Of a stretch of 64,000 nucleotides of DNA, positions 1 to 54,439 are shown piece after piece. Each line of letters opens with the position of its first letter. The first letter of the stretch is position 1. A program made the position numbers and the translations under genes. The DNA is from Psammoneis japonica. Its lineage: Eukaryota. Location: contig QPGO01000093.1 of assembly GCA_008632985.1 (NCBI GenBank), positions 248,001-312,000 of the forward strand, written 5' to 3'. The notes below the pieces were generated by a model. That model was given only the letters and a program-made list of their open reading frames with translations, did not search any database and was not told where the DNA came from.

Positions 1-48
1 AAGAAACTCACAAACTCATTTTCTCCTTGCGTCTCTCAACAGATTGTT

Positions 49-732
49 GTGCACAATGTTGGTGAAGAAGCTCGTAGGCAGGCGATGCTTTCAAAATTTT
101 GGGAATTGCATTTTTGGATCAAGCTCGCATTCACACGGATCGGTGTCATGGAGGAATTGAAGGCTCGTTTGGTGGAGAGGGAAACAGTCAAGTCGACACG
201 AAAGCAAGCAATGGTGCTTTTCATGGACACTGTCAAGAAACGGCTGAAATTCGATCGTAAGACTGACAAAAAGGCAGCGCGCAATTACACAGGCAGTGGC
301 CACAAGGAAGGAAATTAGCCCCACCTTGCACTCTGGAAAGTTGAGTCCGGAAATGAAAGCCCATGTTGACACCATCACAAAGGCGATGGGCAAGTCACAG
401 AATTGTCCAGTCTTTCAGGGTGCAGTTCACCGGGGTGCCAACATTCGTGGTGCACATTTCAATTTGTTGCGTCCTGGAGCCACCTTCATGGACCCGGCTT
501 TTGTGAGTGCCTCTCTGAAAGAGACTGTTGCTTGTGGTTTTCGTGGAAGCAAGAATGCACTCTTCAAGATTGAAAGTCCATCGGGTGTAAACGTGACAAA
601 GAATCCAAAAACAAAGCTGAGTCAGAAATTCTTTTTCGACCTGGCACTGTGTTCATGATCACGGCGGTTGAGGAACATGACGATCCCGAGTGCGGAAAGT
701 GGAAGTTTGTTTCAATGCGGGAGATTCATTGA
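49..732 (+). pseudogene. R-S-E class (VIP2/C3/ART-like) ADP-ribosyltransferase pseudogene, TpA-mutated, two frameshifts
   Basis: Joining frames gives YTGSG(H)KE..., GAV(H)RG, F.DPAFVS(A)S, LFKIESPSGVNV, then AESEILFRPGTVF...MREIH* (stop 730-732). These match the YRG, STS and ExE ART motifs with Y->H and T->A changes at TpA sites. Confidence 0.8.
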
Positions 733-1098
733 TTTTGGTGGAAATTGTCAGAGACGGATGCAGGTTTGGATTTAGAAGACAATGGCAACTGCAGAAAACT
801 TCCCGCTCTCTCCATCTGGAGGTGAGGTCTTGGGGGCCCATGTGGCACAGACAGGAGTGCTTGTTCCTGTCGCAGTGTGTGTTGTTGGCTGAGAAAGTGT
901 GCTGGTGACATTCTCAGTTGTCGTTCATTGTTTTCGCTCGCATTCTCTTTGTTGTGTTTGATTGCTTAATTTGCGCCCACCCTTCCATCGGATCCATCTT
1001 GCGGCTTGCACTGCAAACCCCAGCAGTGTTCCGGGGGTGGCAAACACAGATTGGTGGGACTCTTCCACGTCATGAGCAGTGGACTCATTCACACTAAA

Positions 1099-1494
1099 GA
1101 CGTGTTCCAGCTCTAGGTGGGACCTCGTACTACTGAACTGTGACACAATTATTTTTTATCATCCGTCGTATGTTTCGCGCGTACATTTCTACGTGTTCTA
1201 TTATAAAAAATTGTTCCACACTGCCTGTTTTGCGAAGCCAAAGGCTTTCTGTTATCTGCACTTATGTCAATAAAAATGCGCTGGGTATATTCTTTAATGT
1301 CTAAAGAATATACCCGGGCATACTGTAAAGAATGTACTTCAAGTGTGGAGGAGGAGATACGTTCGCAAAATTGCCTCTTTTTCTGTTGGCGATCATTCAT
1401 ATATGCATTGCTTAATAATTTTACTACGGAGCTCGCACGTAGAATTCTACGGGCCCAATGTCACAAAAAGTCCCACCTAGGACTGGAACCCGTC
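1099..1494. mobile_element. Non-autonomous DNA transposon (MITE) with 25-bp TIRs and 4-bp TSD TAAA
   Basis: GACGTGTTCCAGCTCTAGGTGGGAC (1099-1123) matches the reverse complement of 1470-1494 at 22/25. TAAA lies at 1095-1098 and 1495-1498. The interior is AT-rich and non-coding. Confidence 0.85.
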
Positions 1495-2189
1495 TAAAGC
1501 ATGGACTTAGTTGTGTGAGCCTTCCCCCCTTGTAGTTGATTTGGCTCATGTCTGACCTGGACATGTGGAGCAACTCCGGCAACCACCAATGGGAATTGCT
1601 CGGCTCAAGTCCTGTGGGCATGGTGGAAAAGGAGTCAGCAACTGCCAGCAGCAGCGAACGCGGCTCAAGCCTGTCCTTGCATGACTCCTCAAGACGTGAA
1701 TGACATTGTCCATGTTGTGACACAGGTTTGCATCCAAAAAGAAAAGAGTCGTCCTGTGAACAGCTCCATGATTGAGTGCACATTCAGTCGAATTGCTTCT
1801 GCCTTTCTCGCAACTTCAGATTTGGTGTGCTCACTTGGGCTGCGCGAGAACAAGACTGGCAGTGGAGGAGTCGCTGAAAGAACTGCTGCTCCCACATTCC
1901 AACGTTGATCTGCCGAGTTCACGTGGGATTGTGCACCGCATCACTGTGTTCATTTCTTTTTTTGCCATTGTGTCACTTTGAAAAGTGCAAAGCAGCCTTC
2001 CAAAACTGCTCCACACACAGTGGCACCATGCATGGCCCATTGTCCCAAAACTGACCCGAGTTGCAGAGGGGTGAGATTCCAATGCCGGGCCCACCACTGT
2101 TTGTGCCATGAACATTGCAAATGAGACATGAATTGACGAAGAAGCAAGAGACACCGAATGTCACTCAATTTCACTGCAAATGATTGGGG

Positions 2190-3000
2190 TTGCCTTGTTC
2201 CACCACCAAGCGTGTCATCCATGCCGTCCTCTGCATGCTTGAGAATGGTCTTCATAAGTTGGCTCACGACTTGAGTCTGTGATTTATTGAAGCGCAGTGT
2301 CAGAAATGACAACAGCGAGTGCAACTGAAAACACACCCACAACAACAAGAACAATGCCAACACAAGCAACCACAAGGAACTCACTTGATTGACAACATTG
2401 GTTCGATCCATTTCGGCCAACGGCTTCTCTGACAGCTTGGACAAGTTCTCTGTGAATCGTTCCAACATTTCTTGATGATGCTCAAAGCGCTCCCTTTGCA
2501 TGCTCTTGGTGTCATCCATCAAGTGGTGAGCAAAGGTGTGCCTGTGCTTCAAAACACACCCACACTCCACCAATTGGCCATCTTGAGAAATTCCACATTG
2601 GTCTCCCCTTGGCATCCGAAGTGGATTTCTTGCAACAGCACCATGCGTTGTTCCGTTTGCCGCAACTGCTTCTTGCCAAAGGCTTGTGCTTCGGCACGCG
2701 CGCGATGACGCTTGCAGCAACATGGACACCAACCCAGCTCTCATTTAGCCAGGACCGAATCCGATGGATCATCAGCATTGCCTTGGCATCAGGTCCTTCC
2801 AATCACCAGCACACACTCAACATGTGATTCGTGTCGGCAGTTGTTTGAATCAAATGCTTCACCACCACGGATGAAAGCTCATTTGAATTTTGAGCATTGG
2901 CGCCATTCCACAGCAGAACAGCAACTACAAGGACATGAAGCGGCAAAAGCATTGAGCATGTTGTTTGCCATGACAAGTGGATGTTTCACCATGGCAATCT
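2190..3000 (-). pseudogene. Ariadne-type RBR E3 ubiquitin ligase, C-terminal part, TpA-mutated pseudogene with retained intron
   Basis: QLVECGCVLK(H)R(H)TFA(HH)LMDD...RFE(H)HQEMLERFTENLSKLSEKP...NVVNQ|TQVV..LMKTILK(H)AEDG resembles the Ariadne domain (ECRRVLKYTYVFAYYL...QxxLE). A GT..AG intron lies at 2384-2277. Ends are approximate. Confidence 0.8.
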
Positions 3001-3251
3001 CTCAGAAAAAATGAGGGGTGATGTCGCGATACGATCATGTTGAAGTTGAAGATTGATTCGCGCTCCACCGCGCAAAACGACAACTTGTGGAAAGGACTGC
3101 AAGACGCTCATGACTCAAGTCAGTCACGAACGCTCGTCGTCGCTCATTTTTTCTGCCGCCGACAAAAAAATCTTTCGTGCGATAATTGTTGCAACACCAA
3201 TGTCAAGACAAGTTGCCATAAAAAACAACAAAACAAACTACCAGAATTACC

Positions 3252-3683
3252 ATGTTGCCGACGATTCGTTACCTGGATGATCATCTAAAAGATTCGTTAT
3301 TGTCTGGCAATCACAAGGGACAGCATATTGTACCCGTTCATTCATGTCTTGCTCACGTGCAAGTATCGATTCAGGCCTTGTTTTCTGCTGCCGATGATGC
3401 ATCTTCTCAACTTGCTGCCTTGGACGAAGACGCAAATGCAACTAGGATTGCACTTTCGGATTATGTGGCACGTTGTATTTTCAATCTTCAAGCACAGCAG
3501 CGGCAGCAGCAACAAGAATCATCATCTATTTTCGCCTCGGTTCAACTGTTGGATTGTTGGATCAGTGCATCGCCAAGAGCCGACGAAACAATGGCAACAG
3601 CAAGACAACAAGGACCAAGGTTGTACCGTATCCTCCGTATATTCGATGCGGAGGTTGAAACTCTGCTACTTGGGCTTGACTAG
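3252..3683 (+). CDS. Hypothetical protein (143 aa)
   Basis: ATG-initiated ORF with normal dinucleotide content; no recognised motif. Confidence 0.4.
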   Translation: MLPTIRYLDDHLKDSLLSGNHKGQHIVPVHSCLAHVQVSIQALFSAADDASSQLAALDEDANATRIALSDYVARCIFNLQAQQRQQQQESSSIFASVQLLDCWISASPRADETMATARQQGPRLYRILRIFDAEVETLLLGLD

Positions 3684-3689
3684 CTTCAT

Positions 3690-4863
3690 GAGATCACCCG
3701 GACGGATCTCGTTTGGCTTACGACAAGCCTCTTTAAGATCAGTCTACCAGTGCTTTCGCTGACATTCTTTGGAACAGTACGATGCGAGAAGGCAACGTCC
3801 GCAAGCCGCAAGCATCCAGGCGTTCCATGTCGACCTCTTCCTTCCAAATTTCCGCAAAAGTCAAATTCGTCAGCACCCAGAGCCATTTTTGTGAGAATGT
3901 TTACGAGGACATGTTCTCGCGTCCAAAAAGGCTGATTATTTTTTGGTGCGTTAGCTTCTGTTGCGGCAATACCTGACCCTGCTTTTGCCCGTCCTCTTGA
4001 AGATAGAAGTACATGTCGTCCAAATCATCAAATATTGCGACACTGTTGCGGTCATGGGCCTTCTTGTATTCTTTTTCAAGTATCCTCGTAATGCCCTAAC
4101 AATAGTTCCGATGCACTAGCCAGCGCCTTGTCATGATGCATCTTCGGGGCCTCTTGATCACCTTGATTCCACTTGCTCTGGACCATGCCGCAAGCAGCGC
4201 GGCAACGAAACAACATGAACTCTTATATGTTGCCAACAAACTTGTTCTTAAGAGAGTCCAGGTGCTCATATGCTAGAAAGCCTTGCTCGCCCAGTGCACA
4301 GACAGTCGTCAAAGGTCATGTACCGCAGCTCATCTATTTTCACTGGGTTGTCAATGGCCATGGCAATATGGTTGAGACTGGGTCGGAGGAACTCATCCTG
4401 CAGGACAACCGTATGACTGTCATTTTCGCTCACCGTCATCTTTGTCACCTCTGCCGTGGGATCCAGATCGTCATACAACTGTTGAACGATTCATTCTTCT
4501 GTTTTTCTGTGTCGATAGGCTTTTATAACCTTAACTTTCTCCACAAAGATCGCCGTATTGTAAAGCTTGATGGCCTTTGCTTCCAGCCTCAACACCATCC
4601 TGGATGTCACCCTTCTTTGCTAGATGATAGACTATGTAGTTCCAAGGCTGCCGTGCAGCGAAACAAAGTGGGTTATGGAGGATCCGTAAGTCGTTTTCAG
4701 TTACATTCGCGTCATCCGATTTCAGATAAGATCCATAAAAAGTGAGCAAACTGTAACGTTCGTTGGTCCAAACGGTCGTTGCCAGATCGAAGCATTCATT
4801 CGTCAAGTCTACCGACCTGTTGCAGGTATTATACTCATTTCGATTTCCACTAGACTTTCTCAA
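3690..4863 (-). pseudogene. Fragmented coding-like sequence of unknown family
   Basis: Several consecutive protein-like minus-strand ORF pieces separated by stops and frameshifts; TpA not depleted. Confidence 0.35.
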
Positions 4864-5184
4864 GTTTTGTCACTCAGTTTTGATCGGCGGGCGGATCAGC
4901 AAACAACAATAGAAATCGGTGAATTGATGGCTTTTCTCTACAAGTGTCTATCCCTACCGATATCTACACACAGTATGAAGCTTTCCAAACATGAAAGTCG
5001 ACGTCAATAGCTTTGTGTGAATAAGCAGAGTGCAAAGGCTACTTCTTCTCTGAACTTCCTCTGAACACCTTCAAAACTGTAGAAGTTTTGCTATAATTTC
5101 CTCACTTTATTCTCTATGTATCCGAAAATCGCTTGCTGCTTATTATTATGTCTGGTCACAACACCTTATCTCTTACCGTAAACC

Positions 5185-5873
5185 CTATGGAGAAAGATCG
5201 GCAAGAGGATCCTTTGGATCCAAAAATGCCTCGGGAACATCACAGGGTTCCTCGTCTTCGGACAAGACACACTCATCGCAAAACTTTAGCACTTGCTCGG
5301 GAGTAAGCTCAAACCTAAATAAGAAACAAAAGCATTTGTGTCAGCCAAATCGACGAAGACTATCAACTGTACGCAATCAAATCTCTCGTTTACTACCGTA
5401 CTTACATGTCTTCAAAGACCTCACAATTTCCCGTGGCCACGCATCGATCCGCACAATAGGCCTGCGGATCGTTGCGTGCCATTTTTTTGTCTCGTGCCTT
5501 TTCGCGTGGACTGATCAATGCTTCTTGCTGCAAGTAGGAGTCATCAACTTCTAAATTGTCTGGCAAATCCGACACGTGGACGGCAACCGCCTTTCGAAAA
5601 TCATCTGCAGCCTTCTTTTCGTACTCATCCTTGTGATCCTGACGGTACTTTTCCTGGTCAATCCTGAAACAACAATGTAGTGATTGAAACGTGAGTGAAC
5701 AATGCCAAAGCGACAAAACATACCGCAGCCAATCGCAAACAGTCTTACATGTCGGCAATCCGATCTTCCAAATTCAAAGTTGTCGCAGGACGAAAGCTTC
5801 TTGGTCCCGTGACAACAAAGGCCGACGTCGACGACACAAACAGGCATCCAACGATTGCAGAAGTCTTGAACAT
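5185..5873 (-). CDS. Small Cys-rich, probably plastid-targeted protein (3 exons: 5873-5749, 5663-5406, 5314-5185)
   Basis: Signal peptide with an ASAF-like site (MFKTSAIVGCLFVSSTSA-FVV). Two GT-AG introns splice in frame. The C-terminus reads CADRCVATGNC...FCDECVLSEDEEPCD...*. Confidence 0.75.
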
Positions 5874-6280
5874 GGTGAGCACAGAGTAGTTCGTTCTGTC
5901 GTTGATGGCAACAAAGTGATTGGCGAACAACGAAAGATGGGAATGCAAGAAGCAGACCGATCCGAACGAACAGAGAAAACGGCCATCACACGATTGCATC
6001 ACGACCTTCGTCGACTATCGTAAAAAGAGAACCACTGTGACGTGTGTGCTTCAACTCGTGACGCGAGGTTGTAGGTCACACACAAACACAAACAAAATGG
6101 CTTCATTTCAATCGCACATGAAACATCCTAAAACTGCCAGACAGACAAGAAAATGGCGCGCTTCCAATAATAACCTACGTACTCGAATACTCATCAAATT
6201 TAATATAAATCATCTCCGAGTTGAATATCTAAATAAGACCCGACCGCGACAATCACACAACACAACTCAACATCCTCACC

Positions 6281-7613
6281 ATGGCGACAGCGGCGGACCC
6301 GTATACAGAGCAACAGTTGGAAGAGGTGTGGTCTTGGGTACACAATCAAGATCGATGCGTCACTACTCAAACCGTTTCCCTAGAAATGGGACTCCCAAGG
6401 ACCGTGGCGGGGGAATTACTTAAGGCTCTTCCAAAGCACAATCCCAAAAGCAATGAAACACGCTCGTATGAAGTCACGTGCTGTTGTTTGATAGAGGAAG
6501 CTCCCAACAAGAGTGGTAAGAAGTACCTTTCAATCATGTTATATGTGTAGTTTCTGTGCTGGTGCTATTGTAACTCATATTTGCTCACTTCTTATGAACT
6601 GTTTCAGTCGTCAAATTAATCAAGAGCACGGTATCTTCTGACGATGAGAACATGTCTTTGCCGGACGGCACGATTTATTCCATTGCACTCGCCAAGACGG
6701 AATCGTTCGAAACGGCTCATGAGCGTGACATGGTAACGCTGCGGGAAAACATGGAAAACTGGATCCATCCTTGCACTGCTTTGACGTACAGCCCGTTCAA
6801 GCCGTAGAACGCAATGCTGCGCAGAAACGGCGTGTAGCCGACGTGACCAAAACCACCTCGTCTTCTACCAAAATGCGCAAAACCACCACTGCCAAGGACT
6901 TTTTCATTAATATCGAGAGCAAAAACAAGAAAAAGGAAAGCAAGAGTGTTTCTGCTTCTGATAAGAAACCTGCAGCCAAGAAGGACTCGAAGAAACCTGA
7001 AACTAGCAAGAAGGATACAGCCTCCAAAAAGAAGAATCCTTTTGAAGCCGCCAAAAAGGCGAGCAAAAAGACAGATGAGAATGGAAAGAAGAAGAAAAAG
7101 TCTGCATCATCCACAATCATTTTATCCGACAGCGACGACGACGACGAGAGTGTCGTCGAGCCCTCGCCCCGAAAGAAATCGAAAAAGACAGACGAAGAAA
7201 AGGAAAACGTGGGCAACGCGGATGACTTTGTCGGTGACGAGGAAGAGGATGACGACTTTTTGGCGCAAGAGGAAGAACGCAAAAAGCGTCAGGCCAAACA
7301 AGAATTGCAGGACCAACAAGCCAAGCGCGAACGCGAGCAGAAACTGCAGAAACGAGCCGAGCGACCCAAGCATGACAAGAAACCACAAGAACCAACGGAA
7401 CGCAAACGCAAGCGTCGTAAAAAGCTTGTGGACAAGACCACCATGGATGCCAGTGGCTATCTGCACACGGAAAAGGTGACGGTTTGGGAAGACATTCCCA
7501 CAGATGAAGAAGACGAGGTGGAAGTCAAGACCAAGTCGCTCAAACCTTCCAAACCAATCAAGAAGAATATGAAACAGGCGGGGCTCATGGGGTTCTTTAC
7601 CAAAAAGAAATAG
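6281..7613 (+). CDS. POLD3: DNA polymerase delta subunit 3 (Cdc27/p66)
   Basis: Charged low-complexity middle, D-x-x-G-Y-L-x-T motif (MDASGYLHTEKV) and C-terminal PIP box QAGLMGFF. Intron ~6516-6607; apparent 1-bp homopolymer loss near 6755. Confidence 0.85.
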
Positions 7614-7640
7614 AAACTAGCTAGTACCTCTAACTTGTTT

Positions 7641-10179
7641 TTATTGATCTGTTGGTAGGCTTTTGAACTTTGCTGACAAGTCTTGTTCTATTCTTGTGCC
7701 CGCCGTTGTTTCTGCTTTGCTAATGTAGAAACTCTTGTTGAGCGCGTTGGGGTCAAGGAGAGCGGTAGCACACACTTGGGCCACGTCAGCTCGAGACACT
7801 GGAGTTACAGCGTCGTTGGACTGCAGCAAAGAGTAGGGGAATATTTAGCATATCCTTTGCCGACGGAATGAACCAGCTAGAGAGACAAGCACAGACTTAC
7901 CGATTGCAACTCGATTGTGTTTGCATCTGCCGTTGGTAGCTCATTGTAGCCTCCAACCCGTATTATCGTGTAACTGCGAAAGAAAACATTGAACGTTAGT
8001 GGTGTGGGTTGGAATGACAGTCTCCTACAGAACGTCAGCGCTGTGCGTACCTTAAGCCGCTACTCTTGAGGATCTCTTCTCCTCGATACTTATAATATGT
8101 CTCTTCCTTGCTACGATCTTGTCGGTCTTGTGCGACTCGCTTCAACTCGGCCTCGTCCAGAATTCTATACGCCCCGTCATCACTGGAGGATGATTCAGTA
8201 TCCGTGACGAGACGCTTTGCCTTGTGGCGTATCATTCGACTTTCAACAACGGGTGGGATCCTGGCGTCACTTAAATAGATAAACTCGGGTTCTGGCTGGG
8301 ATCGATAAACCTTGATGTAACTCAAAGCCAAGTAGAATCGTTTGAACGCTTTGCCACCCTCGTCAGAAGTGTTCTTGTCTGGGTTGCTCGCGCTTCGATA
8401 ACGGAATCCAATCTGCCGAACGTCCTGACCTCGAAAGGGTGGGACTACTTGATCTGTACCTCCTTTGGTTTGAACCGGCTTGAAGTTGGCAAAGTCTAGC
8501 CGAACCGTCATGAACTTGTTCTTTGACTTGTTTCCCCGACTGAAGGGTTTCATCATGGTACTAAAGTCGCATACATACTCCACTCCATCGGTTTCATAAG
8601 CTCCCGTTCGAACAAAGGCTTCATAAGTGCCTCCATCTGCACACACACGACAGACAAACCCACCAAATCCATTGCTCAAATCAATACCGGCATCTGGGTC
8701 ATCCCTACTAGAACGAAGCCTGCTGCTCACAATGGCAGCCTCACCACCACCACCGGCATCTCCGGCTGGCACCTTGCCTACAAAGACGCCATGACCAAAT
8801 TCGTTCCTAACCCACTTGCAATGCGTTTTTGTTGATGCTCCAGCTTGTCGAGTTGCAGCAGCCGCAGCTTCATCTTCGTATTCGGCATATGGATCATCCA
8901 TGTCGTTGTATTTGTCATTCATCGCAGCGTAATAGTCATCATCGTCTTGGTCGTAATCCCCATAGTCCTCGTCGTCGTAGTCACCATACTCGCTACTTGG
9001 AGAAGACGATGCTTGAACCGTTTCACCTGCTGGCTCTGGCAGAGCTTGATCTTCGTCGTCAAAGTCCTCGCCATCGATTGCAAACAAATTAAAATCCTCT
9101 GCTCTGGATCCAAACTTGAAGAGAGAACGCTTTGCCGCTTGGGATGTGCCATAGTCGGCAAATCGGACATTCTGATAGGCTCTCACAAGATTCTTCATAC
9201 CGTTGTAATCCACCTGCTCCGCCAGTTTGGCACGTAGTTCAAGCACAGACTCGAGTTCCAACCAGTCGCTGTCACTCATGCTCACCTCACTCTTTCCAGG
9301 TTTGACCTTTTCGGCTCCATTCTTTCCATTGCCGTTTTCCAAGTTCTCGTCGACAAACTCTTGGAAACGATCCTGAAAGTTGGCTTCATCCAATCTCGGT
9401 GCTCCCGCACAAAATACAATCTTATCCACATCGGTAATGGCGTATTCCAAACTCTCCACCTTGCTCAAGTCTCCCTGACAATATGTCACGCCCGTGCCAA
9501 GCATATTGAGGGTTTTGGAGTACAAGTCACGCACTAGTACACGGACACGAAATCTGCCATCAATCAAGAGCCGTCGTACCACCAGCCTTCCCACTTCGCC
9601 CGTCGCCCCCACAACAAGAACTTCCGGTACGTAATCATCACCCGACAAGCGGTCAAACAGAGGATTGCGTTCTGAAAAGAGAGCTCCTCCCGGGCCACCC
9701 TGATCGGCAAATCGATCATCGAGATAATAAATGGATCGCCGCTCTGGAGAAACGCCTTGTGAACTTAGAGTGGAAATTGCGCTTCCAATCGTCTTGCGCA
9801 CCTTTCGTCCAGCCTTAAAGGGATCCAGCATGTTCAACAAACCCTCCTTCTTTTCTTCGTCCTTTGGCTCCTTGTCTTTTCCTAAAAGCTTGGCTGTGGC
9901 TTTTCCAATGGCTTCTTTTTTCTCATCCTTGTTTAGTTTTTTCTTCTTTCTCGGCTTTTTGTTTTTACTCTTCTTTTCGGGATTTTTATTTTCTTCTCCA
10001 TCGTTTGAGTTGTCGGTAGCAAAAAAACAGGAACGCTGTCGAGAGAGTATTTTGAAGCTGTTCCATACCGTCGCTCTCGAGCCTCTTCTGCCACCTGACG
10101 GAGCTACAGTCAGAAAAGCCGACGCAAAGCGGTGCTCCGTCAGAGCTGAAATCAGAAGAATTAGGTTCACTGTTCTCAT
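7641..10179 (-). CDS. Plastid-targeted NAD(P)-binding Rossmann protein with CIA30 insertion (HCF173-like)
   Basis: ASAFL presequence, VLVVGATGEVGR, a CIA30-like segment (GGFVCRVCADGGTY), and C-terminal LKSSGL/YTIIR and VSRADVAQVC in later exons. Confidence 0.8.
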
Positions 10180-11001
10180 CGTTTTTCTTTGGGAAACAGA
10201 TTATAGTTACACGCTACACTATCGGCCCTTCTCTTCGAACGACGAGACAACGAAAATAGACACGACAGGTTGTTGTCGTCGAATGCCAAGTGTCAAAGTC
10301 GCCAAGGTCGAGTGATGCATCGATCGAGTGCGAGTCGCGAGTTGTTAGCGCTGTCACGAGTTTGAAGCAAGCGGCATGATGTGGATCGCCTCTGTAGAAA
10401 TTGTACTGATGCCAACGCAACAAAAACCCGGATGTTGTATGTGTCTCAAATTTGAATTTCGCGAGTCTCAAATCTGCAAGATCTTGCGATGACACCCCTC
10501 GCCTTCGACTCGCTCCTCCATTTGACTTGAAGTTGCTTGGTTGACTAATTTTCACGGCCTTGCGGTGTTCTCAGCTGCATGGATTGCAACGAAAAAAAAT
10601 CTGGGGACAAACGACGGACGACACTGTGTGTTGATCAAGCGCAAACGCGACAGCACCCTTTCTCCATGCTACAACGAGCCCAGAAAAGGCAAAGGGTCTT
10701 TGCATTTATTGCAAGATGTAGTGATGTTGACTCTTGACCGCTTTACGATCCGTCTCAAATCACAAGGGGTGCAAAGACGTGGGCACAGTGTGAGTTCTCG
10801 GGAACCGAAATTGATGGGATTGTGAAAAGATTCTGCTTCAGAAAAATTCAGGCTTTTCCACAGATGATGGCGGACAGTGTCCCATGCAACCGACATGTCA
10901 AAGGAACATTCGCCGCTCAGGGTCATGGATTGGTCGAGCACAGGGACGGCTCTCGAAGGTTTGTGTTGGCGTTGTGTGAAAAGGTTGCCTGGTGCGACAC
11001 A

Positions 11002-12480
11002 TCACACCTCTTGCATCATCTCCTGCTGCCACCAATGTTGAATTGCATTCTTGCACTCTTTGCAAGAGTCCAAGACTTCAACCGAGGGAAATTCGTTCCG
11101 AGCCTCGTAGATCTGGTCCCATTCTTTAGCCACCTTCTTTTTGTCAAAATGACACACACCCAGTGCAGTTGGCCCACCTTCTTTGCCACAGAAGGCCATC
11201 AATGCACACTTTTTCAGTTTGACATCGTCAGTGCACATGGTGGCACAGTTCTGCAATGTGTTTGCAACTTGAAAAATTTCATAGAGAGATCGAAGAACTT
11301 TCATGTTGACAGAGTCAGGGAGAGCATCCAAGTGACAAAAAGGTTCACTGTTTTGTTCTCGAAAGTCGCATTGCATCTGTTTGAGCAGTTGGCTGGGTTC
11401 AAGGGTCACGGCATTAGCTGGCCACTGACGAGCATTCCCAACACCCCATTGCCTCCTGACAAACATCGCAAGTTCATCAAGAGATCCCAGGCAAAGGTTC
11501 CAATCATCCAAATGCTTGACAAAGTGAAGCCGTGGTTCACCATCGTGGTTCAGGACAGCGCTGATTCTCCTGCAGGCAGAAAGGTGGTTTGGGTCTAAAT
11601 CTTGCCACGCGTTGTGACTCTCAGTGATGGCGTCTCCCAGGTTTGAATGACCCATGGGCAAGAGTGACCCTTCATCGAGCAGATTGAGGAAGTGACCTTC
11701 CAACCAGAGATGAGGCAGGGTGACATGCCAACAGGGCCTGGGAGCCAGTGACCAGTTGCAGGCCCACAAATCGGAAATGATGTCTTGGTCAACTCTCTCG
11801 AGCATCAAGCACTTCTCAATCATCCTTGCAATGTCCCAGCAGACATTGTGCATCAGGAGGCAGCTCTTGAAGCTCCGATGGTGTGCCAAAAGCATTCATT
11901 GCAGCCCAAAGGACCTCTTCCTTGTGCACTCGCCGGTGCCTGTCAACAATGCAATTGCGCGCCGCTTCCAAATCAAAACTGCCCATTCCCTTTGTAAAAA
12001 CATCTGATCCGCGTGGTGGCCTCCACGCACCATTAAACTGGTGTCCACCACCGACTGGCTCCCACTTCGTAGATCCGTCCAGCAAGTGGCAAGAGTGTTC
12101 CAGGTTAGACTGCTTGTGCAGAAGACACGCGTGCTGCTTCAAGACGTGACGAGGGACCCCAAACAGGGCCTCAAAAGTCTGGCAAACAGCATGAGAATCA
12201 CGAAAAGCATTGGCTTTCTGGGCCTTCTCTGGATCGCCAAAGAGATTGCAGGCGCGATCGTGCCATGAAACAATTTGCTTGTTCATCCAACGGCATTGGC
12301 CCGGCTCATGGCTTGCACTGGGAGCGTCTGCATTGTTCGGCAGCTGAAAGATCACAGCGCCAGACACCAGCTGGGAAGTTGATGTCAGAATGAACGCTTC
12401 TTTTGGCACTGGGGCTGCAGTCGGGCTCACAGCGAGGTGTCCTGCAAGAGTGAGGACAGTGCTCTTCATCGTTTTTGATT
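11002..12480 (-). pseudogene. TpA-mutated gene with C-terminal PcfJ-like domain
   Basis: EIFQVANTLQNCATM(C)TDDV...(C)ALMAF...PTALG...QIYEARNEFP resembles the PcfJ pattern EL..EG..M.HCV..Y...V...T.E...Q..G..N..P. Recognised by eye only. Confidence 0.45.
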
Positions 12481-13385
12481 TGCTCCTTTTGCTCTGACTG
12501 ATGGTTGAAGAACAAACAAGAGAGCCCACGCATCAAAGTGTGTTCGCCCGCACAAAAATTGCCACTTGGCAATTTTCCGATCTCGGGTTTTTGAGCAGAG
12601 GGAATCTCGGTGTCGAACCGAATGACGCACAAAGATGAAGTTTCAGCTGTCGCGCATTTTGGTGACTTGGCGAGAGATGATCAGTGTTCCTGAGTGCAAA
12701 AGACGGATGCAGCGATTGAGCTCATTGCACCTTGCGGTCATGAACTGCATTCAATGTGCTCATCTTGCATTCTACATCAAATCTTCTCGCTGTGTCACGA
12801 GCGCCACACTCAAATCGCAGTTGACGCGCATGTTGCGCAGACCTTTGAGCATGTTTCAAACGTTTGTTTTCAACCAACATTCAAAACTAAAAGCATCTTG
12901 GAATGGAGCTGCATCAACTGCACACAAAAACATAACAAGAAGTGCTACATTCATTGTTTGGCGATGACACGATGATGCACAGGACACGTGCTGTCGGCTG
13001 TCGGTGGTCGCACGCGATGCCAAGCGGGAAAGCTGACAGAGCCATGGCTGCAAAGGATGAGCTGTTTTGCTTTTCTCATGATTTGATAGACTCAATAGAA
13101 AAGAGCAACAGTGCAATGGAACAACAAGCTCAAGGACATATAGACGAGTAAGAGTAAAGGCCAACGAGCGGCGTCGATGCGTCGGTCGTCATTTATTCAT
13201 GGCCCCTCGCCATAACTACAAGCAGGGCCCTACAATTTGAAATTTTGATTTTCTGGTTTTGGGGTCATTTTTTGATATTTTAGAAGAATCTGCCGCCGAC
13301 GCACAACCCGGAAACCGTCGTGTGACGTGTTCATGGCGGGAAACGTTCCAACCCACATCAAAGTATCCCTTACTACTCATCCACC

Positions 13386-17949: not shown

Positions 17950-19952
17950 GTCCTCCGATGTGCCAGTCACGTGTGGATGTTCACGATGCGAGTTGGTGCA
18001 GCCCAGCGGCACTGTCATCACATTTTGTTTGATCCAGATGGCTCACAGCATCAGCCAGCTGTGTTTTGTGAAAGACTTTTAACTGAGTGCCCATTTGGCT
18101 GCTCAGCAGCAGCCAAAACAAGCATTTTTGCTTGTGGTCTGCCTGCGACGTTGACCTGGAGTGGATGTCATCCAGTTGATGTGCTGAAAGGTGTGCTCAA
18201 AGCTCTCTGTGCACACACACGCTCAAGCTTTGACCATCTGTGCTCACCCAAACTGAGCTGACCTTGCCCTCTCAGTGCCTCCTTCACACAGGGGCTGTGC
18301 TCGACACTCATTTTGCTGAGTGACACCTCTGCCCTGTCTCTGGCACTGCCAGCAGCAGCCAATTTGTTGCATCTGGCCCCAGCACCCCAGCAGCCAATGA
18401 TTGTCAAGAGGCAGCTGAGAGTCCACCACTCATGCTGTGCAGCCCCAGGCTCTGATCCACAGCCCCATGGTGGCCTCCTCCCTGAGAATTGTCAAAACAA
18501 GAGCTCTGTGAGCTCATTTTCCCTGGTGGAAACATCCTGGATGGATGGTCAGACTCAACAGCATCAAGTGATCTGGGCACCAATGCTGCTGGCAGACATT
18601 CCCAGTGCACCACTGAGGATCTGCCTCCTCAGGAGCCAAGAGGCTGTTGACAAAGACTCTGCACCACCCTCTTCTCCCATCACACTGCCAGGATGGCGCC
18701 AAGTTGTCACCAGACAACAACGACGAGTCCAGTGATGAGGACTCATCATCACTGGCTGCTGCACACTGAGGGCCATGCACAGCTTTGCTGCGATGTTTGC
18801 TCCAACAGTGCCGCTGTTGCCTCCATGCACACACCACCACCCAAGCTTGCAATGGGGGTGGGTTGGTGCCAGCAGGCTGCTCCCATCAAGTTTCAAGGAG
18901 AAGAGGCAAGCCCAAGGCCAGCTGGCCTGGTCTGGACCCCTCCATTGACATCTTCCTGTTGCTGCCCAACCACCAGCACCAACCCCACTGCGTTGTGACA
19001 GCCTAAAAAAGAGCAGCCCATCTCCTGCCATGCTGTGCAGGGAAGCTTGGGCTTGGCAGATCAACTGTGTGTGTGCTGCCAGAAGATTGACTTTTTTGAC
19101 TGCAGGATCACCCCAAAGGGGTTTGGCGTTGTGCAGAAGACAGATCCCACTGGGCCTGCTCCTGTGTGCCACCTGTGCTGGACTCAGCCAATGCTGAGCA
19201 CCCTTGCAGCCCAGCAGCAATGAAGCCCTCCCACCAAAATGTCTGCCAAAACCTCACTGTGCCACATCTGTGGTCTGTGGCAAGTTGAGATGCTGGACAG
19301 GAATTGACCTGGGTGTTTCTCCCACTGGCCACATCGACAAGCTGTGCCAGCAGCAATGGGAGTGGTGCAGCAGTGGACAAGGTTTGTGGCACAGTTGCAG
19401 CAGTGGCAACTGCAGCAACCACTGATCCTGAAGGCATGGCAACAGACACAGCCAGGTTGTGCCAGCTGGAAGAAGAAGTGCTTGCTCCCAAGGATGGAGA
19501 GCTGACATCTGAGACTCTGTGGAAGGGGAAAACAGCAGCGCTGAGAAGTGCTCATTCTGGTCTGGCACAAATGACCACAGCAAGAAGCAGTTGGGCTCAC
19601 ATGACTCACCTGTTGCATCTAGCCCAGGTGCCACCAGTGTGTTCCTTGGCTGATCCCAGAGCACGGTGTGCAGCTTTTCACTCACTCCACTTGCTGTGTC
19701 AGTTGTGCTCCCTCACTGGTTTGTTGTGCTTGGGTGCCCTGTGCCCCATTGCATGGGTTTCACTCTTTGCTGCTGCTGGCTGCTGCCCTCCCCCACTTGC
19801 CTGCAGGGTGGTGCTGGCGCGACCCATCATTGTTGAGATTGTCATGTCCCTTGGCACTCTTGTTGTCTCCTCTCAGTTTGCTGGCACCTGCACCCTCTTC
19901 CCACGTGTTTTGAGCTCCTTCTTCCACCTGACAAATGCTGTCTCTCAAGCTC

Positions 19953-20012
<60 letters not shown>

Positions 20013-20560
20013 CTCTTTCCTGTCTGAAGACACAAGGTGGGCTTGGACACCTGTGCTGCTCTCCTTGCCACATGTTCACACCAATGCACACACAAAAACA
20101 TGCCATTTGAGATGTGCTGTGAGCAGGTGTTGCCACGACAAATGCCACCTTGGGCCATTGTGCATGTGCATCATAATTTCACATCTGAGGACATGCAGTG
20201 AACATGACCCCACATGCCCCCCTTGCATCCACATGCAAGACCACACCCTCAAAATGTGCACACTGGGGTGCTGAGATGTGCGCTGAGTGGGTGCTGCTGC
20301 GCTGTGTCAGTGGACTCGAGCACTCTTGCACCAACCTGGCCTCTCAAACATTCTTGCACCCACACCATTTTGACCACAGGTGCCATTGCTTCTGTTGCAG
20401 TTGCTGCTCCAGTGAACACTCTGGAGAACAATGGCGAGCTGTGAGCCACAGATGAGAGGGCGCTGTCTCTGCCACTCTTTTTCTTGCAGAAAAAATGCAA
20501 AAACACGATGTCACTCCCTCCCAGCTGCCCCCCAAAACACAGTGGGCACAATGGAGTGAG
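17950..20560. other. TpA- and CpG-depleted degenerate block
   Basis: Almost no TA and few CG over 2.6 kb. Six-frame translations are Cys/His/Gln-rich and essentially Tyr-free. Confidence 0.9.
19954..20011. repeat. (TG)n microsatellite, ~29 units
   Basis: Read directly from the sequence. Confidence 0.95.
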
Positions 20561-31900: not shown

Positions 31901-32169
31901 GGTGAAACGAAAAAAGATTGTGCTGTTGCCAGAAGGTTGTCGCGCGCGGTTAGTCGGCGGTCATCCTAACAGGGGATCGAGCTCTAAAATACGAGCTCTT
32001 TTCGTTTGTTTGGCTGAGTACACGGACATCAACCAGCTTTTTGGATTTGCAGAGCAATCATCTCCACTCCACCCGTCAGACATGTACAAGGTCTGTTAAT
32101 TTTATTACGTCATTGTGGCAGCCAAGGTCGGTTGCAGGCCTGGGAGGAGAGAGAGAAAAAGCACAGGTC

Positions 32170-32346
32170 AGGTGCAAATCATCATGATGCTCTGCATGTT
32201 TCTTGTCCTCGCACCACAATGACGAAGCCCTGATGGAAGCCCAACTTTGCAAGCTTTTCACCTGAAACTGTCAAGAACATCCACTGAAATCAGAAGTTCC
32301 ATCAAACAGGGTTTTTCTTGTTCCACATTGACACATCTCAAACATG
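32170..32346 (-). pseudogene. Mutated copy of the ceramidase 3' coding end and 3' flank
   Basis: Aligns to ~54368-54539; GTRKTLFDGTSDFSGCS versus GTRKILFGGTSDFSGCS in the intact gene. Confidence 0.9.
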
Positions 32347-32369
32347 ACTTTGCAAGGAATGCAGGCAAT

Positions 32370-33249
32370 GGCAAGTTCCTTGTGTCCTTTGCAAGCAGAT
32401 GATTCCCCAACACATGGCAACTCTGTGCAAAGATTCTTGAGGGTCAATGGCTTGGTTCTTTGGTCACCTGTGGGCTGGTCTTGGAGTGCTTGCAAGAGCA
32501 CATGGCAAAGAGCCAGGCACCAATGTGTGTTGCTTGGTTTTGGGGCAAGGCTCAGAGGAGTGAGGCGGTGATCACTTTCTGCCTGTTGCTTCTGCTTTCC
32601 ATCTTGATTCTTGTGGCCTCAGCATTGGCAGAGCAAAAGGCGCAAGGTGCACCCATCCTCATCCAGTCATGGGTCTTTCCAGTTGTGAGATCCAAAGGTG
32701 GGTGCCACATCATCCATGGCAGCTGTGGCGGCCCCTGCCACCAGTGTTTCAAATTGTTCAGCCAAGTGTCAGCCTTCCTGCATGGCAGCTGCAAATGCTC
32801 TGAGGGTGTGAATCCGATGTTGTTGGGCAATGGTGAGCTTGTCCATGAACAGGTGGTCTTTGAGTTCAATTTTGCCAAGAACAACTTTTCCCAGTGGGTG
32901 AAAGCTGTGTCTTGCTTGTTCTTGTCAGTCTCTTTGGCATTTGCTTCTTGATGGGATCCTTTGGTGTCAAGGAGGAGGTTGGTTGGGAAACAACTTCTCT
33001 GGGCAGCAGCAAGATGCAAAAATTGTGATGAAGCAAAAGGGCAAGTGTGTCATCAGACAAGTTGCTGTCTCTCAACAGGCAGTTGCCAACAACGTTCATT
33101 TTGTCTCCAGGAGCTGTTGGCTGAAGGATTGACTGTTGGCACCCATCATGACAGATGCAAACTTGCTGGCAATTTCTGTCTGCTCTGGGTCAGTCTCTTT
33201 GTCAAAGTTGGATTTGCACAGCCAGCCCATGGTGGCAGTGCTGTTGTCC

Positions 33250-33285
<36 letters not shown>

Positions 33286-34200
33286 CACAAGAGAAAGGAG
33301 GGAAGTTGCCTTTGATGCAAGTGATCCACACACACATGACGCTGGTGATGAATTTCTTGGTGTTGAGGGTGAGACTGTGAACCAGGTGATGGGGGAGCTC
33401 CCAACAATGTGCTCAACCCATTTGGACATTGCAGCTGCCAATGCAGTGTTCTGATGTGCATCCAATCAGCAGACATGGGCGGGTTTGTGGCAAGTGATCA
33501 GGCTCAGGTTGATGCCTGGGCATGGATCATGCTGAGTCAGCACAGATGGCATGAGAAATGGAAAGCATGCAGGACAATGTGTCCAAGATGGTTCAGGCAA
33601 CCAACAAGCTGTTCAATCTCCTTGAAGGCACATCCTCCCCTCTTGACAAGTCTTTGGAGTTGCTTGGACCAGGCAATGAGTTTGTGTTTGGGAAGCACAG
33701 TGCGTGCATGTCGTTTGTTTGACAGTCAGCCAAGGGCTGTCCCAAGCACTTCAAGATGGTCTTTGGTGCAGAGCTTCTTCAAACAAGTGAGATCACCCCT
33801 GGCAAAATCTTTGTGAGGGTGAGCTGGTTGGCCAATGTGTGAATTCCCGGAAGTGCTGTTGCTCTTCTCTTCATTCAATGTTGTCGTCAATGTCAGGTGC
33901 AGCTGTCACTGTGTTGACAATGCAGACCTTGACTGTGCCCATCATGTTGTTTAGAGAAATGTTGACTGGCAAGTTGAGAGCTGGTGTGAATGGCACATCA
34001 TTGCTTTCAAAGCAGGGAGAAGGAAGGTGATCAAGTGTGGGGTTGTGGGGGACTGGGTTCCAGGACTTGCATTGAAGGATGTCATTGGACAGACCACACA
34101 CTGATTTGGAGAGATGTCACCCCACAGATTTGGGTTCAGCTTGCCTCTGAAGGCAAATCATCTAAGCTGACAATGGATTGCATGGTGCTGTGGCACTTTT
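32370..34200 (-). mobile_element. Degenerate DIRS/Ngaro-like tyrosine-recombinase retrotransposon (RT, RNase H and YR relics)
   Basis: RT: LSNDILQCKSWNP...PFTPA...GTVKV(C)IVN at the YIDD position, and EIEQLVGCLNH. RNase H: TAMGWLCKSNF and NVVGNCLLRD. YR: DP*LDEDG...GHKNQD, and IGAWLFAM(C)SC(K)(H)SK for the expected AMRSCEY. Confidence 0.75.
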
Positions 34201-34477
34201 CAAGTGGCCTTGGTGACGGGCCAACTTGTGGTCAATCTTCTGCAGCCATCTCTTGGCATTTGCGTTGGGCTGTTCCTTGGGTTGCAAATGGGAAATCCCC
34301 AAAAATGACTGATTGTGGTCATTGCATTGACTTCTGCTCAAACAATGAAGATCACAGACAAGTGCAAAAGCAATTGCATCAAACAGTTTGTGACCCTTTC
34401 TTTCAAAATGACTCTTGAATGTGTGAACATTGCATTTGGACACTTTTGCTCATTCTCACTCTGGAGCCAATTTGTCC

Positions 34478-34665
34478 CACTCTAGAGCTGTTTGACTCTA
34501 GAGAGAATGTCACACTCTAGAATCTTGGGTTCTAGAATGCCGCACTCTAGAACCATTCAATTCTAGAATGGCACACTCCAGAACTGCTCAACTTCAGATT
34601 GTCCTGTTGTGCAGCCATTTGACTCTAGAATGTCACACTCTAGAACTGCTCAACTCCAGATTGCA
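34478..34665. repeat. TCTAGA-cored tandem subrepeat array 1 (~15-17 bp period)
   Basis: Alternating TCTAGAATGTCACAC and TCTAGAACTGCTCAA-like units. Confidence 0.85.
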
Positions 34666-36239
34666 ACGGCTGCTGTTGAGTTTTGCTTGCATCTGTGGCA
34701 GCTGATGGCACCATGGGTTCCAGCTGATGGTGCCATTTTTTTTTACAGAGCTTGGCAACAACCAGGATCAGATTGCAGCTCAGCCAAGATGTGGTCCATG
34801 TTTGGGCACATGCTGCCATTTTTGAGCAATTCTTTCAAGCTGTTCCCATGGTGTTCACAAACCCAAGATTCCAGCATCTTGACAGATGTGACACACTTGG
34901 GCATGCAACATCAGGCTCTCATCAATTCAGGCTCAAAGACACTGTTGATGAAGGGTCTGGGGAGATGTTGCATGCTCAGGAACAAGAGCCACATGGGACA
35001 CAACATGGCAGCTTCATGTCTCCCCTTGTGTGCAGTGTGCCAAATGACAAATGAAGCAAAATTGAGCATGACATCATGTGCTGGCTTTTGACAACCTCAA
35101 ATTTCACCCAGGTCATTGGTGCCAGGTGCATTGTCCAGAAACAGCTTGTCCTTTTCAAAGCACAAATCACTGATTCCTGGAGCTCAAATGAGAACTTCAC
35201 CAAAATTTCCATTCTCCTGTGCGCAAGTGCAAAATCAACTTTGCCACTGACAGCCAAGGGGAGATGTTCACAAGCAACCACTTGATCTGCAACAGATGAC
35301 TTGCCATGCTGCTTCATTGAATTTGGTGTGAGCCTCTGAAAGGATTGATTGAGTCCTTGGCAAAGCAGTGAAATAGAACATGTGTTCCAGAAAGGAATCT
35401 AAACAGCAAATTGCTCTCATTCAATGGTGCTTTTGTTGCAGCATCGACAGTTGTGAGGACAGCAATGCAACATCCAATCAGAGTCAGAGCCACAAGAACT
35501 GTCAAGACAGAAAAGCAGTGTGCAGGTGGGAGAAACAGTGCTTCATCACTCTTGACAAGATTGCAAAACACAAGCAAGTGCATGAGCCGGCACCTTGCAA
35601 CAACAGAAGCCCAGACATGAGAAAAAGCACCCAAGAACTGACAAGGCAGCTGGCCCTGCGGATTTGGAGAGATCCTTGAGGACATCTCAACAACTGTCAA
35701 TCGCTGTCTGAGATGAGCAACAGACAAGTCAGTTAAAATGTGTGCACACTTCAGAGTGGCTGCATCTCAAGCATGCAAAACAATTTGCGCTCACCCCATG
35801 GATGCCCAAATCACCTTCCATTTCCAAAAGCTCTTCTTTTCCATTTTTGACCAACTCCATCATGTGTCTGTGTAGATCAGAGTGCACCAAAAGCATGAGA
35901 TCTGTTGCACACAGGCCAGCTTGCAATTTCAAGACACGCTGCCAGATTCAGAGTGACCATCCATCAGATTTCTGCTTGACAGAACAGCAGCACTGAAAGG
36001 TAGAATCCTTGCATCCATCCCATTCCCAACAATGGTGAAGCCAATGTTTGGTTGACATGTGTGGGGAGCATTGTTGGTGGATGATGTCACTGCACAATGT
36101 GCGTTGACAACATCAGGGCTGCTTGCAGGAAAAGCCTGCATTTGACCCCACTCAGCCTGCAACATGCATGGCACCAGAGGTGCAAGAATTCTCATCCACA
36201 AAAACAGCACAAGGAATGCTGTGAACCCCAGTGCACAAC

Positions 36240-36680
36240 CACAAATGCAAGACAGCCCACTCTGCTTCAAATGGGTGCCTTGACATTTCCTGTTGCAACA
36301 GCACAAGCAATGGTCAGTGGAGTCTGTGAGAATGTTTCTTTGATGTGCAGACTTCCAAGCCACAAACAACAAACAGCAGAGAAAACAAGCTCACGAGAAG
36401 GTGCAAGGCACCTCTTTGCTTTGCCAAAATGATGGATGCAATGCCAAGACAATTTGCACTTGACAAACTGACAGACATTTCCCATTGCAATTGCACAAGT
36501 GCTGGCAGACAGTGGAGTCCACCATGAGAACATTTCTTTGACATGCAAGCTGTCCAAGAAGCCACAAATCACAAAGCACAGAGCAGACAAGCTCACAAGA
36601 CATGCACGCCATTTTGCTTTGCTGAAATGATGGACATGACCAAGCCAATTTGCACTCGAGCAAATGGCAGTTGCAACAGT
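36240..36680 (+). repeat. Degenerate ~190-bp tandem repeat (at least 2 copies)
   Basis: gacatttc...ttgca...gcacaag...gtggagtc...gagaa...tttctttga...gccacaaa...aagctcac recurs at ~36280-36430 and ~36475-36630. Confidence 0.65.
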
Positions 36681-37636
36681 GTGGGACCCCTTTGAAAACA
36701 TTTGACACCAGGAAGGCACAATTGCCGGGGAACATTCATCCTGAGAGATGCCATTGCTGAAATGCCTGACTGCAAACACAAAGAAAAAAGATGAAGGTGT
36801 GAGCACAAACAGCAAATTTTCTCCATTGCCCACAGTGCTGCTGAACTTTGCTCACCACCACCAACAAAGCAGATGTCACAGATTGGAAAGGAAGCAGTGG
36901 GCTGAGGTGCCGCTGCTCTGCTTTGGACACAGAGCTGTCTGAAGTGCTTTTGACATGTCATGCCATGCTGTTCTGCACCACTTTCTCCTTTGTAGAAGTT
37001 CTTGCAGGTGCAGCATGTTGGGACAGGCAGAAGTGCCAGCATTGTCCACCTCATTGCATTGTTTTGTCATTCGTGTGTGTGCTGAGTGCGTGAATGGTGT
37101 GCGGCTGACAACAGACAATTCACACACCTCTGGCATGGCACAAGGTGTCATTGCTCCCAGACTGGAGTTTGCAGCAACCAGAACACCAATGGCGAGTGCA
37201 AATTTCAACAAAATTCCTCTTTCAGACCCTCTCTGTGAAAGAGAAATGAACTTAGAGTGCAGATGGCTTTTTTCTTAGCTCACAACATTTTTGTGCTTCA
37301 TGCTTTTGGCACAACATTGTTTTGCCAAAAACAGAAGCACAAAATAAAAAACAACATTGCTGACCCCTCACAGGCATGAGGAAAATTCCGGTGGTGTCAA
37401 GAATGGATGTGTTGACAGTGACAGCTGCTGAACTGCTGCAAAAGGGCCTCAAGCTCACCTGTTGTGACTGTGCACAGCACACAGCACCAATGCATTTGAA
37501 GTGTCAAAGACTTGAAAATTGCACTTGGCTTCACCCAGCAGCCTTGTAAATCCTTGGCTTTGCTGGCACATTGGACGTTGGCCTTGTGATCTTGCAAGTG
37601 GACAAAAAAAACAGCTCTGGAGCAGAGATCATCTCA

Positions 37637-37812
37637 GTTCTAGAATGTCCCACTCTAGAGCCATTTTAGTTCTAGAATGCCATGTTCCAGAGCTGTTCAA
37701 TTCTTGAGTGTCACATTCTAGAGCTGCGCAATTCCAAAGTGTCACATTCCAAAACTGTTTGATTCCAGAGTGTGTCACAATCCAGGCTGCATTTGTCCAC
37801 TCTAGAACTGCA
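37637..37812. repeat. TCTAGA-cored tandem subrepeat array 2
   Basis: Same unit family as array 1; several cores have decayed to TCCAGA. Confidence 0.8.
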
Positions 37813-47900: not shown

Positions 47901-47943
47901 TCCAGCTGACTCGCTCATCACAATCTGCCAACACAAGGCATGC

Positions 47944-48033
47944 CTTTGGATTCCTGTCAACTTCCAGCTTTTCCTTTGGATTCCTGTCAATCTCCCAGCC
48001 CTTGACTTTGGATTTCTGTCAACTTCCCAGCCT
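47944..48033. repeat. Three ~30-bp tandem repeats (CTTTGGATTCCTGTCAACTTCCCAGC-like)
   Basis: Read directly; lies at the 5' side of the gag relic. Confidence 0.85.
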
Positions 48034-54048: not shown

Positions 54049-54439
54049 GCATGGCCAGAATGACAACATGCTGTAACGATAATGTCAGTTTCAGATGGAC
54101 ACACGACATCAAAACATCAGTTAAACTAAACCAGTCGATACCAATAACACAAGCTATTAGCGCTCTTTGCACTGAATATACGGTATATGAGTTCCTACTT
54201 CTGAACTCGCAAGCACGTTTTAGTTGAAGAGGAAGATAGATACCGGTAGCACTAGAGATAGAGCGCGCGCCCGGGCTCGGAGGGCGGACATCTTCAGGTT
54301 GCGTTTGTCCGAAGCCTTACTAGCAGCCAAACACTGAAAACATGAAGAAGGCTATCAACCTTGTACGGTGCTAATCATCACGTATCACGTTGCAGGTTTG
54401 TCTTCGACACAATGGTGAAGCGCCATTGGAGAACCGACA

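Follow-up and report, generated by a model that had tools for sequence, protein, structure and literature searches.

A fragment of a conserved host gene, lying on the minus strand at positions 2208-2782 of the 64,000-nt stretch of diatom-like DNA analyzed here (hereafter the window), has been stripped of TA dinucleotides. We consider it probable that this is a dead, 5'-truncated ARI1-type copy situated in a silenced tract, where TpA hypermutation bound to location, together with CpG loss, has eroded the sequence. Under this explanation, a mutator acting at the DNA level would convert TpA to TpG on either strand of the silenced tract (so that TA appears as TG or as CA), the erosion of ARI would be a collateral effect of the hypermutation of that tract, and the CG loss would mark its CG methylation. 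The sequence comparisons presented below indicate that host-gene DNA is a substrate of a TpA-erasing process.

The fragment represents the last (3') third of the gene for an Ariadne RBR E3 ligase of diatom type, encoding the C-terminal third of the protein. A reading of this DNA made from the letters alone (hereafter the sequence-only reading) had identified the sequence as the conserved host gene Ariadne E3, and homologue and profile searches bore this out. A search of 163 candidate proteins with the exon at 2388-2600 gave 151 matches at E ≤ 0.001, with top identities of 76-78%, and the named homologues were diatom ARI/RBR ligases (Ditylum, Attheya, Cylindrotheca, and Grammatophora). The match of this exon to the Pfam Ariadne family (PF19422) was weak and below the cut-off (E = 0.0084); a profile built from 120 ARI-type proteins among the matches listed recognized two frames of the fragment at E = 2.6e-34 and 6.3e-16. 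Frameshift-aware alignment spanned 2782-2385 and added a weak remnant of the end of RING2 at 2793-2869 (minus strand), which scored 50 compared with 27-34 in eight shuffles. An Ariadne domain C-terminal to RING2 was thus found by Pfam, homologue, and profile searches, and the fragment lacks a RING1-IBR-RING2 arrangement in one frame with the catalytic cysteine. There was no RING1 or IBR match in 1900-3600 by profile, or up to 3300 by frameshift-aware alignment, and no ARI homology was detected in 2870-3000, strong homology being restricted to 2208-2782.

Judged from its sequence, the fragment is a pseudogene, derived from the family and not a working member of it. The decayed ARI1-type exon that encodes the Ariadne-domain region (2385-2782, minus strand) has a stop at 2743 and a reading frame shifted overall by indels at 2626, 2604, and 2572, the indels being scored against the intact version described below. 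A deletion of ~20 codons between RING2 and the Ariadne domain, read from the gap relative to the consensus, separates the RING2 remnant from 2782, and the gene is truncated at its 5' end. In the last coding exon (2208-2276, minus strand), recognized by protein homology, a conserved Tyr reads His. The fragment therefore resembles working Ariadne (ARI1/HHARI-type) ligases in its 76-78% identity over the best exon and in its conserved last intron, but differs from them in that RING1 and IBR were not found, RING2 is ruined, and the frame is broken by a stop and a frameshift.

The two coding exons are separated by a phase-0 GT..AG intron of 108 nt (2277-2384, minus strand), at a position common to other algal ARI genes. 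The sequence-only reading had noted that an intron was still present, and the same 108 nt are excised exactly in a contig of run X2 (see below). The motif flanking the intron was found in 39 of 80 related loci. It was interrupted at the same codon in six, of which five had a full GT..AG intron of 77-153 nt and one had no acceptor found, and it was contiguous in the other 33, many of which are probably transcripts. A processed (retro) pseudogene is ruled out by the presence of the intron at 2277-2384, and its retention shows that the change took place on the genomic DNA of a host gene. The intron donor (2379-2384) reads GTG and six of six orthologous donors read GTA; the GTG may be a further TA loss.

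Depletion of TA in this piece is severe. Positions 2190-3000 contain four TA dinucleotides in 811 nt (Poisson p = 9e-9). When 330 overlapping gene-rich stretches of this length were counted, the lowest value was 13 and the median 29. None occurs in 2385-2745, and 79 of 80 orthologous stretches hold 7-38 (median 16). At the protein level, none of seven Tyr columns conserved at ≥0.90 was kept (three read Cys and four His), versus 62 of 77 other such columns (p = 3.8e-5); this was a hand count in which Tyr columns were defined by majority share among homologues and columns 369-372 were excluded because of an indel. Two more Tyr positions of the ARI piece likewise read His. The sequence-only reading had drawn attention to the motif HRHTFAHH (2523-2546, minus strand) as a product of repeated Tyr-to-His replacement by TA to CA. 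All four replacements were confirmed against the intact version, in which the His codons are Tyr codons altered by T-to-C at TA (2546, 2540, 2528, and 2525). As a full account of the changes, however, the TA-to-CA pattern falls short. Three conserved Tyr upstream of the motif read Cys (TA to TG), indicating that both outcomes occur, CG sites were also lost, and the Thr-to-Arg change within HRHTFAHH is a transversion at CG and no TA event. Stop codons in 1500-3180 comprise four TAA and four TAG versus 90 TGA; with TAA and TAG stops erased, eroded pseudogenes can retain long open frames.

Contigs from three runs of one sample, X1 and X2 among them, were compared with window positions 900-3500. 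Run X1 carries the eroded version (records 2, 4, and 6; depth 49-67) and also an intact version (record 7, 2464-2696, depth 57.5), which keeps the Tyr codons and the reading frame. Over 2494-2638, the eroded and intact versions of run X1 have depths of 59.9 and 57.5, respectively, with the proviso that contig depth is not copy number. Record 14 of run X2 has the same intact letters, with 2255 joined to 2385; 129 positions are skipped and 21 letters lie between, which corresponds to removal of the 108-nt intron. Although run X2 is labelled 'DNA?', we took it as RNA because of the exact intron skip and the exon-only cover, and record 14 would then be a spliced transcript, an intronless paralogue being the alternative. 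No run X2 contig has the eroded letters at 2424-2638, but contigs cannot show absence, and this is no evidence of silence. An intact version of the gene, on which the sequence-only reading depended, is present among the contigs of both runs. This counterpart consists of short contig pieces, with gaps at 1670-1685 and 2696-3086, and is presumed to be continuous as one locus.

Comparison of the window with the contigs yielded 227 differences, of which 40 were listed, 22 of them in the ARI exon. We determined the substitution spectrum for 190 sites where the listing was judged complete (2416-2546 and 2577-2638, with 2547-2576 and 2639-2696 excluded). Between the intact and eroded versions, all eight TA sites and seven of 11 CG sites were changed, compared with seven of 89 other A/T and none of 63 other G/C positions. 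Counted by base, eight of 16 TA bases versus seven of 89 other A/T bases were altered (Fisher p = 1.7e-4), the TA part resting on eight sites, and changes were also enriched at CG (p = 3.5e-5). The sequence-only reading had called for substitutions to be tabulated by context; the outcome was a strong TA enrichment, with CG hit too. All eight TA changes in the exon are transitions, and at least 14 TA transitions occur among the 40 listed differences. Four of the eight TA losses fall on silent third positions at codon junctions, which indicates that the rule sits in the DNA. The direction of amino-acid changes was set by protein conservation, and that of silent changes was assumed. Five further transitions in the exon, in 89 non-TA sites, are silent or affect poorly conserved positions and may be ordinary divergence.

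The ARI piece is part of a TA-poor tract (1-3180) that is open at the window's left end and has a sharp right edge, with the change-point at 3180 (3120-3210). TpA loss with a gain of CpA and TpG is confined to discrete regions of the window. Within this tract, TA densities on the two sides of an insertion are 6.4 and 4.2 per kb, against a background of 32-41 per kb. The insertion itself (1099-1494) is MITE-like, bounded by inverted ends of 26 nt and a target duplication of 4 bp, and it has kept its TAs (33 in 397 nt); its summed depth is up to 253,379 versus ~60. An intact counterpart contig has an empty site in its place (joint 1099-1527). A second host-like segment (1527-1911) has TA-intact counterparts and at least six TA losses among the listed differences, and one of its frames (1532-1783) had no homologue among 13 candidate proteins. 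The neighboring 1584/1587 segment exists in four versions, three of them TA-intact and the fourth eroded. Just beyond the tract, a neighboring ORF (3252-3680, plus strand) has a normal TA density (37 per kb) and a second version in runs X1 and X2, which in record 15 of run X2 has 11 other letters over 3264-3496. This ORF had one distant homologue, matching the first 132 residues only, and the name Neurochondrin was not adopted, the Pfam match being below the cut-off. In 3252-3760, where TA is normal, there is a possible intron or stop at 3681, and the ORF may itself be a fragment. Broken ADP-ribosyltransferase-like (ART-domain) frames lie within the TA-poor tract at 1-729 on the plus strand, with a Pfam ART match for 248-655 (E = 8e-7) and an ART-domain remnant at 248-729; look-alikes in the Atlas were mostly eukaryotic ART clusters, with one viral.

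How the eroded copy arose was examined through its neighbors. TA-intact counterparts occur in window order and at similar depth for 1002-1670, 1685-1987, 1966-2281, and 2385-2696, and a second version exists across 3086-3320. Colinear counterparts over several segments point to a multi-gene segment and not to a small captured exon. We lean toward the view that the ARI copy arose within such a segment as a segmental duplicate, but the colinearity also fits a decayed haplotype. At least three different ARI 3' ends are present in run X2 (loose ends at 2198-2257), and extra depth is present in run X1; these additional, more distant 3' ends in both runs indicate several ARI versions in the genome or sample.

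A possible but less favored origin of the eroded ARI is allelic or homeologous: one haplotype of the locus would have lost the 5' part and had its TAs erased in place, with silenced DNA on its left, another haplotype staying functional. In favor of this, a single eroded and a single intact version have nearly the same depth (59.9 and 57.5 at 2494-2638), 3086-3320 is present in two versions (depth 69.1 and 72.5) and 1584/1587 in four, and several neighboring segments have colinear counterparts. Divergence at non-target exon sites (7/152, 4.6%) is also close to that of the neighboring ORF (11 differences over 3264-3496, 4.7%), and diatoms whose haplotypes are strongly heterozygous, with a third one besides, have been reported (10.1101/2022.07.14.500034). 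On the other hand, contig depth does not give copy number, ARI 5' sequence was not detected at 2870-3300, and the eroded contigs of run X1 differ from the window by eight letters in 651 nt and by one letter and two gaps in 518 nt, a pattern that would suit two alleles at the eroded locus or a different strain. The neighboring genes were not found in synteny at 80 distant loci: by tblastx, window regions 1-2190, 2790-3250, and 3250-10700 gave no matches to the 80 ARI loci, a weak test since these are mostly short contigs. Rather unlikely is a stronger form of this origin, in which a TpA-directed DNA-editing defense would spread from silenced DNA into ordinary host genes and destroy one haplotype's ARI in place, in bursts on one strand. 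Should this stronger form hold, the defense would drive haplotype divergence and functional hemizygosity in diatoms. The proposal of the sequence-only reading that intron-containing gene duplicates are targeted thus holds for host-gene DNA as a substrate and for the intron, but duplicate status does not follow, equal depth fitting an allele or homeologue as well.

Among known systems, the ARI tract appears by analogy to work like the TpA hypermutation of Bigelowiella natans. Mettrop et al. (bioRxiv, 10.64898/2026.01.13.699255) describe how NCLDV and virophage DNA that has integrated in that organism is hypermutated, with A-to-G changes at TpA only, a confirmed single-copy viral region as the main target, a rate raised ~1000-fold in mutation-accumulation lines, and ADAT2 as a candidate deaminase. 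As far as that account goes, the two cases share TpA to TpG/CpA change that is bound to regions, needs no second copy, and is not constant in time, and the TpA-poor clusters of B. natans include host-type domains, a likeness to the ARI tract. They differ in organism, B. natans being a rhizarian alga and the present one a diatom-like stramenopile, and in target, which is viral there and a diatom-type host gene with an intron here. TA loss is saturated in the ARI piece, whereas the B. natans viral region is described as keeping 3.3% TpA. CG was lost here as well, and the window records an end state and not a measured rate. The seven non-TA A/T changes, some of them A-to-G, also exceed the TpA-only pattern described for B. 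natans. The words 'diatom' and 'stramenopile' had no match in the main text of that report.

For the chemistry of the change, we tentatively propose that an ADAT/TadA-type enzyme, acting on short exposed single-strand patches, deaminates adenine in DNA to hypoxanthine, which is then read as G. In a run at 2500-2546, 10 of 18 A on the plus strand became G and none of 14 T was changed (p = 0.001); the run includes all eight lost exon TA sites, every one altered on the same strand (p = 0.008, a post hoc value for one cluster). Against strand runs, the six TA losses of the 1567-1864 segment divide into four on the plus strand and two on the minus strand. Surviving TAs stand in YTAR at 45 of 77 sites in the tract versus 211 of 1297 in the background (32 of 64 without two tandem arrays), a bias like an enzyme's flank preference. 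A motif of 'edited A then pyrimidine' fits these survivors, but the opposite-strand A had been hit at six of six one-sided sites of known outcome, and two of the eight changes in the run go against the strand that this rule predicts. We drew no motif because the plus-strand run confounds the comparison and two of four protein-inferred sites go the other way.

An error-prone Y-family polymerase is a less likely mutator. Pol eta favors A in WA, with TA above AA, and if a Pol eta-like enzyme filled in repair patches where the DNA is methylated, the losses of TA and of CG would be connected. Changes do run on one strand, and five of five non-TA A-to-G exon transitions follow A (5/34 versus 0/55 after C or G; p = 0.007). 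However, the three such changes listed for 1560-1618 come after G, C, and G, the changes inferred from the protein at 2697-2734 come after G and C, and the AT-to-GC changes of B. natans hypermutable regions are described as all lying at TpA in the text available for 10.64898/2026.01.13.699255. Tract composition likewise revealed no spill-over to AA in three CG-mild windows, the AG/AA ratio being 0.72 in 1500-2999 versus 0.73 ± 0.14 for converted background. In 13 CG-poor windows the ratio was 0.70-1.64 versus 0.74 ± 0.13, values that ancestry confounds.

What selects the target appears to be location or chromatin state and not copy number. This is favored because the intact version is untouched, the high-copy insertion is spared, and three intact 1584/1587 versions persist; it is also favored because the ORF at 3252 is TA-normal despite its second version. 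The sequence-only reading had instead implied a homology-triggered defense resembling RIP, in which duplication recruits the mutator and the growth of gene families is restrained. We regard this as unlikely. Close counterparts of the eroded DNA do exist in the genome, and other TA-poor tracts of the window are internally repetitive. But only one partner was changed, and multi-copy DNA was spared (the MITE-like insertion, the 1584/1587 versions, and ORF 3252). The tract edge at ~3180 falls where a second version of the sequence exists, an observation that is only suggestive. In B. natans, the target is a confirmed single-copy region, and de novo duplications are not reported as targets in the available text of 10.64898/2026.01.13.699255. 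The proposed limit on evolution through duplicated genes accordingly does not follow from these data, as the intact version keeps its TAs, the 1584/1587 segment has three TA-intact versions, and the high-copy insertion escaped. The insertion may alternatively have been spared since it is younger than the last mutation episode, and a homology trigger would then be compatible. Mutator activity was probably episodic or slow, because the later insertion has survived, as has a TA newly formed at 2255. As the ARI copy is truncated and frameshifted, its TA loss may have followed its death.

Fungal RIP itself is ruled out by its opposite direction and by the alteration of one partner only. RIP occurs mostly at CpA, so that it makes TpA, and it is triggered by homology in the sexual cycle and depends on RID. 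It converts C:G to T:A and mutates both duplicate partners in ascomycete fungi, as stated in the available part of PMC2621366. The ARI tract is like RIP in that transitions of a specific context accumulate densely and destroy repeated or silenced DNA, gene copies included. Here, by contrast, TpA was removed, CpA and TpG were gained, 0/63 non-CG G/C bases were changed, and the intact partner is unaltered.

The suggested capture of the fragment by a Pack-type or Helitron transposon, followed by mutation as part of that element, gained no support, and we hold it to be improbable. A truncated gene piece among other fragments, including the ART-domain remnant at 248-729, would suit such an origin. 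No inverted ends or transposase remnant were found around the ARI piece, though the tract's left end lies beyond the window and eroded element ends could escape detection; the depth of 1500-3100 amounts to 1-5 units, unlike a repeat family, and the counterparts are colinear over >2 kb. Ordinary pseudogene decay, GC-biased conversion, or assembly error can hardly account for the data, since the copy has the indels, transversions, and CG loss typical of decay but combines complete TA loss with no change at the 63 other G/C positions, conversion would act without TA context and would oppose CG loss, and the X1 contigs (records 2, 4, and 6) show the eroded version, albeit from a run that may be the assembly's source.

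The accompanying CG loss has a candidate explanation of its own. Diatom transposable elements are CG-methylated by DNMT5a, according to the accessible text of PMC9998398, and the CG loss in the tract would fit DNMT5-type methylation followed by 5-methylcytosine deamination. Such methylation leaves the TA loss unexplained. Our literature searches, outside which most subscription papers lay, found among the results listed no paper on TA-erasing hypermutation in diatoms.

To judge from the literature found, TpA-directed A-to-G hypermutation has so far been measured on viral inserts in one rhizarian alga. A conserved gene with an intron that bears a saturated footprint in a diatom-like genome extends both the lineage and the substrate range, and the intact, apparently spliced counterpart polarizes the changes. 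The targeting question (foreign origin, homology, or chromatin) becomes testable in a group with genetic tools, and the ARI case hints that a natural DNA adenine editor may exist. Caution is also called for, as pseudogenes of this kind can retain long open frames.

Three further TA-poor tracts lie in the window, at ~10760-12880, 18050-20500, and 32150-50700, the last two being also very CG-poor, so that two depths of CG loss are seen among the TA-poor tracts. The tract at 10760-12880 is CG-mild and has long open frames with no Pfam match; it may be another eroded host-gene copy. Those at 18050-20500 and 32150-50700 are internally repetitive, with 1.6-2.6 TA and 9-11 CG per kb. In a pair of segments that are 76% alike (32171-32337 and 54367-54530), there is no TA in the member inside the TA-free tract versus six in the member outside; only three of the six TA differences read TG or CA in this old pair, which counts against the explanation that we prefer. 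At position 2017, the window has A and both run X1 versions have G, a CG-to-CA change private to the window assembly that could be an allele, a strain difference, or a recent mutation. Two arrays of a 31-nt unit rich in palindrome-like CTAG, at 34472-34663 and 37634-37772, keep their TAs within the TA-free tract.
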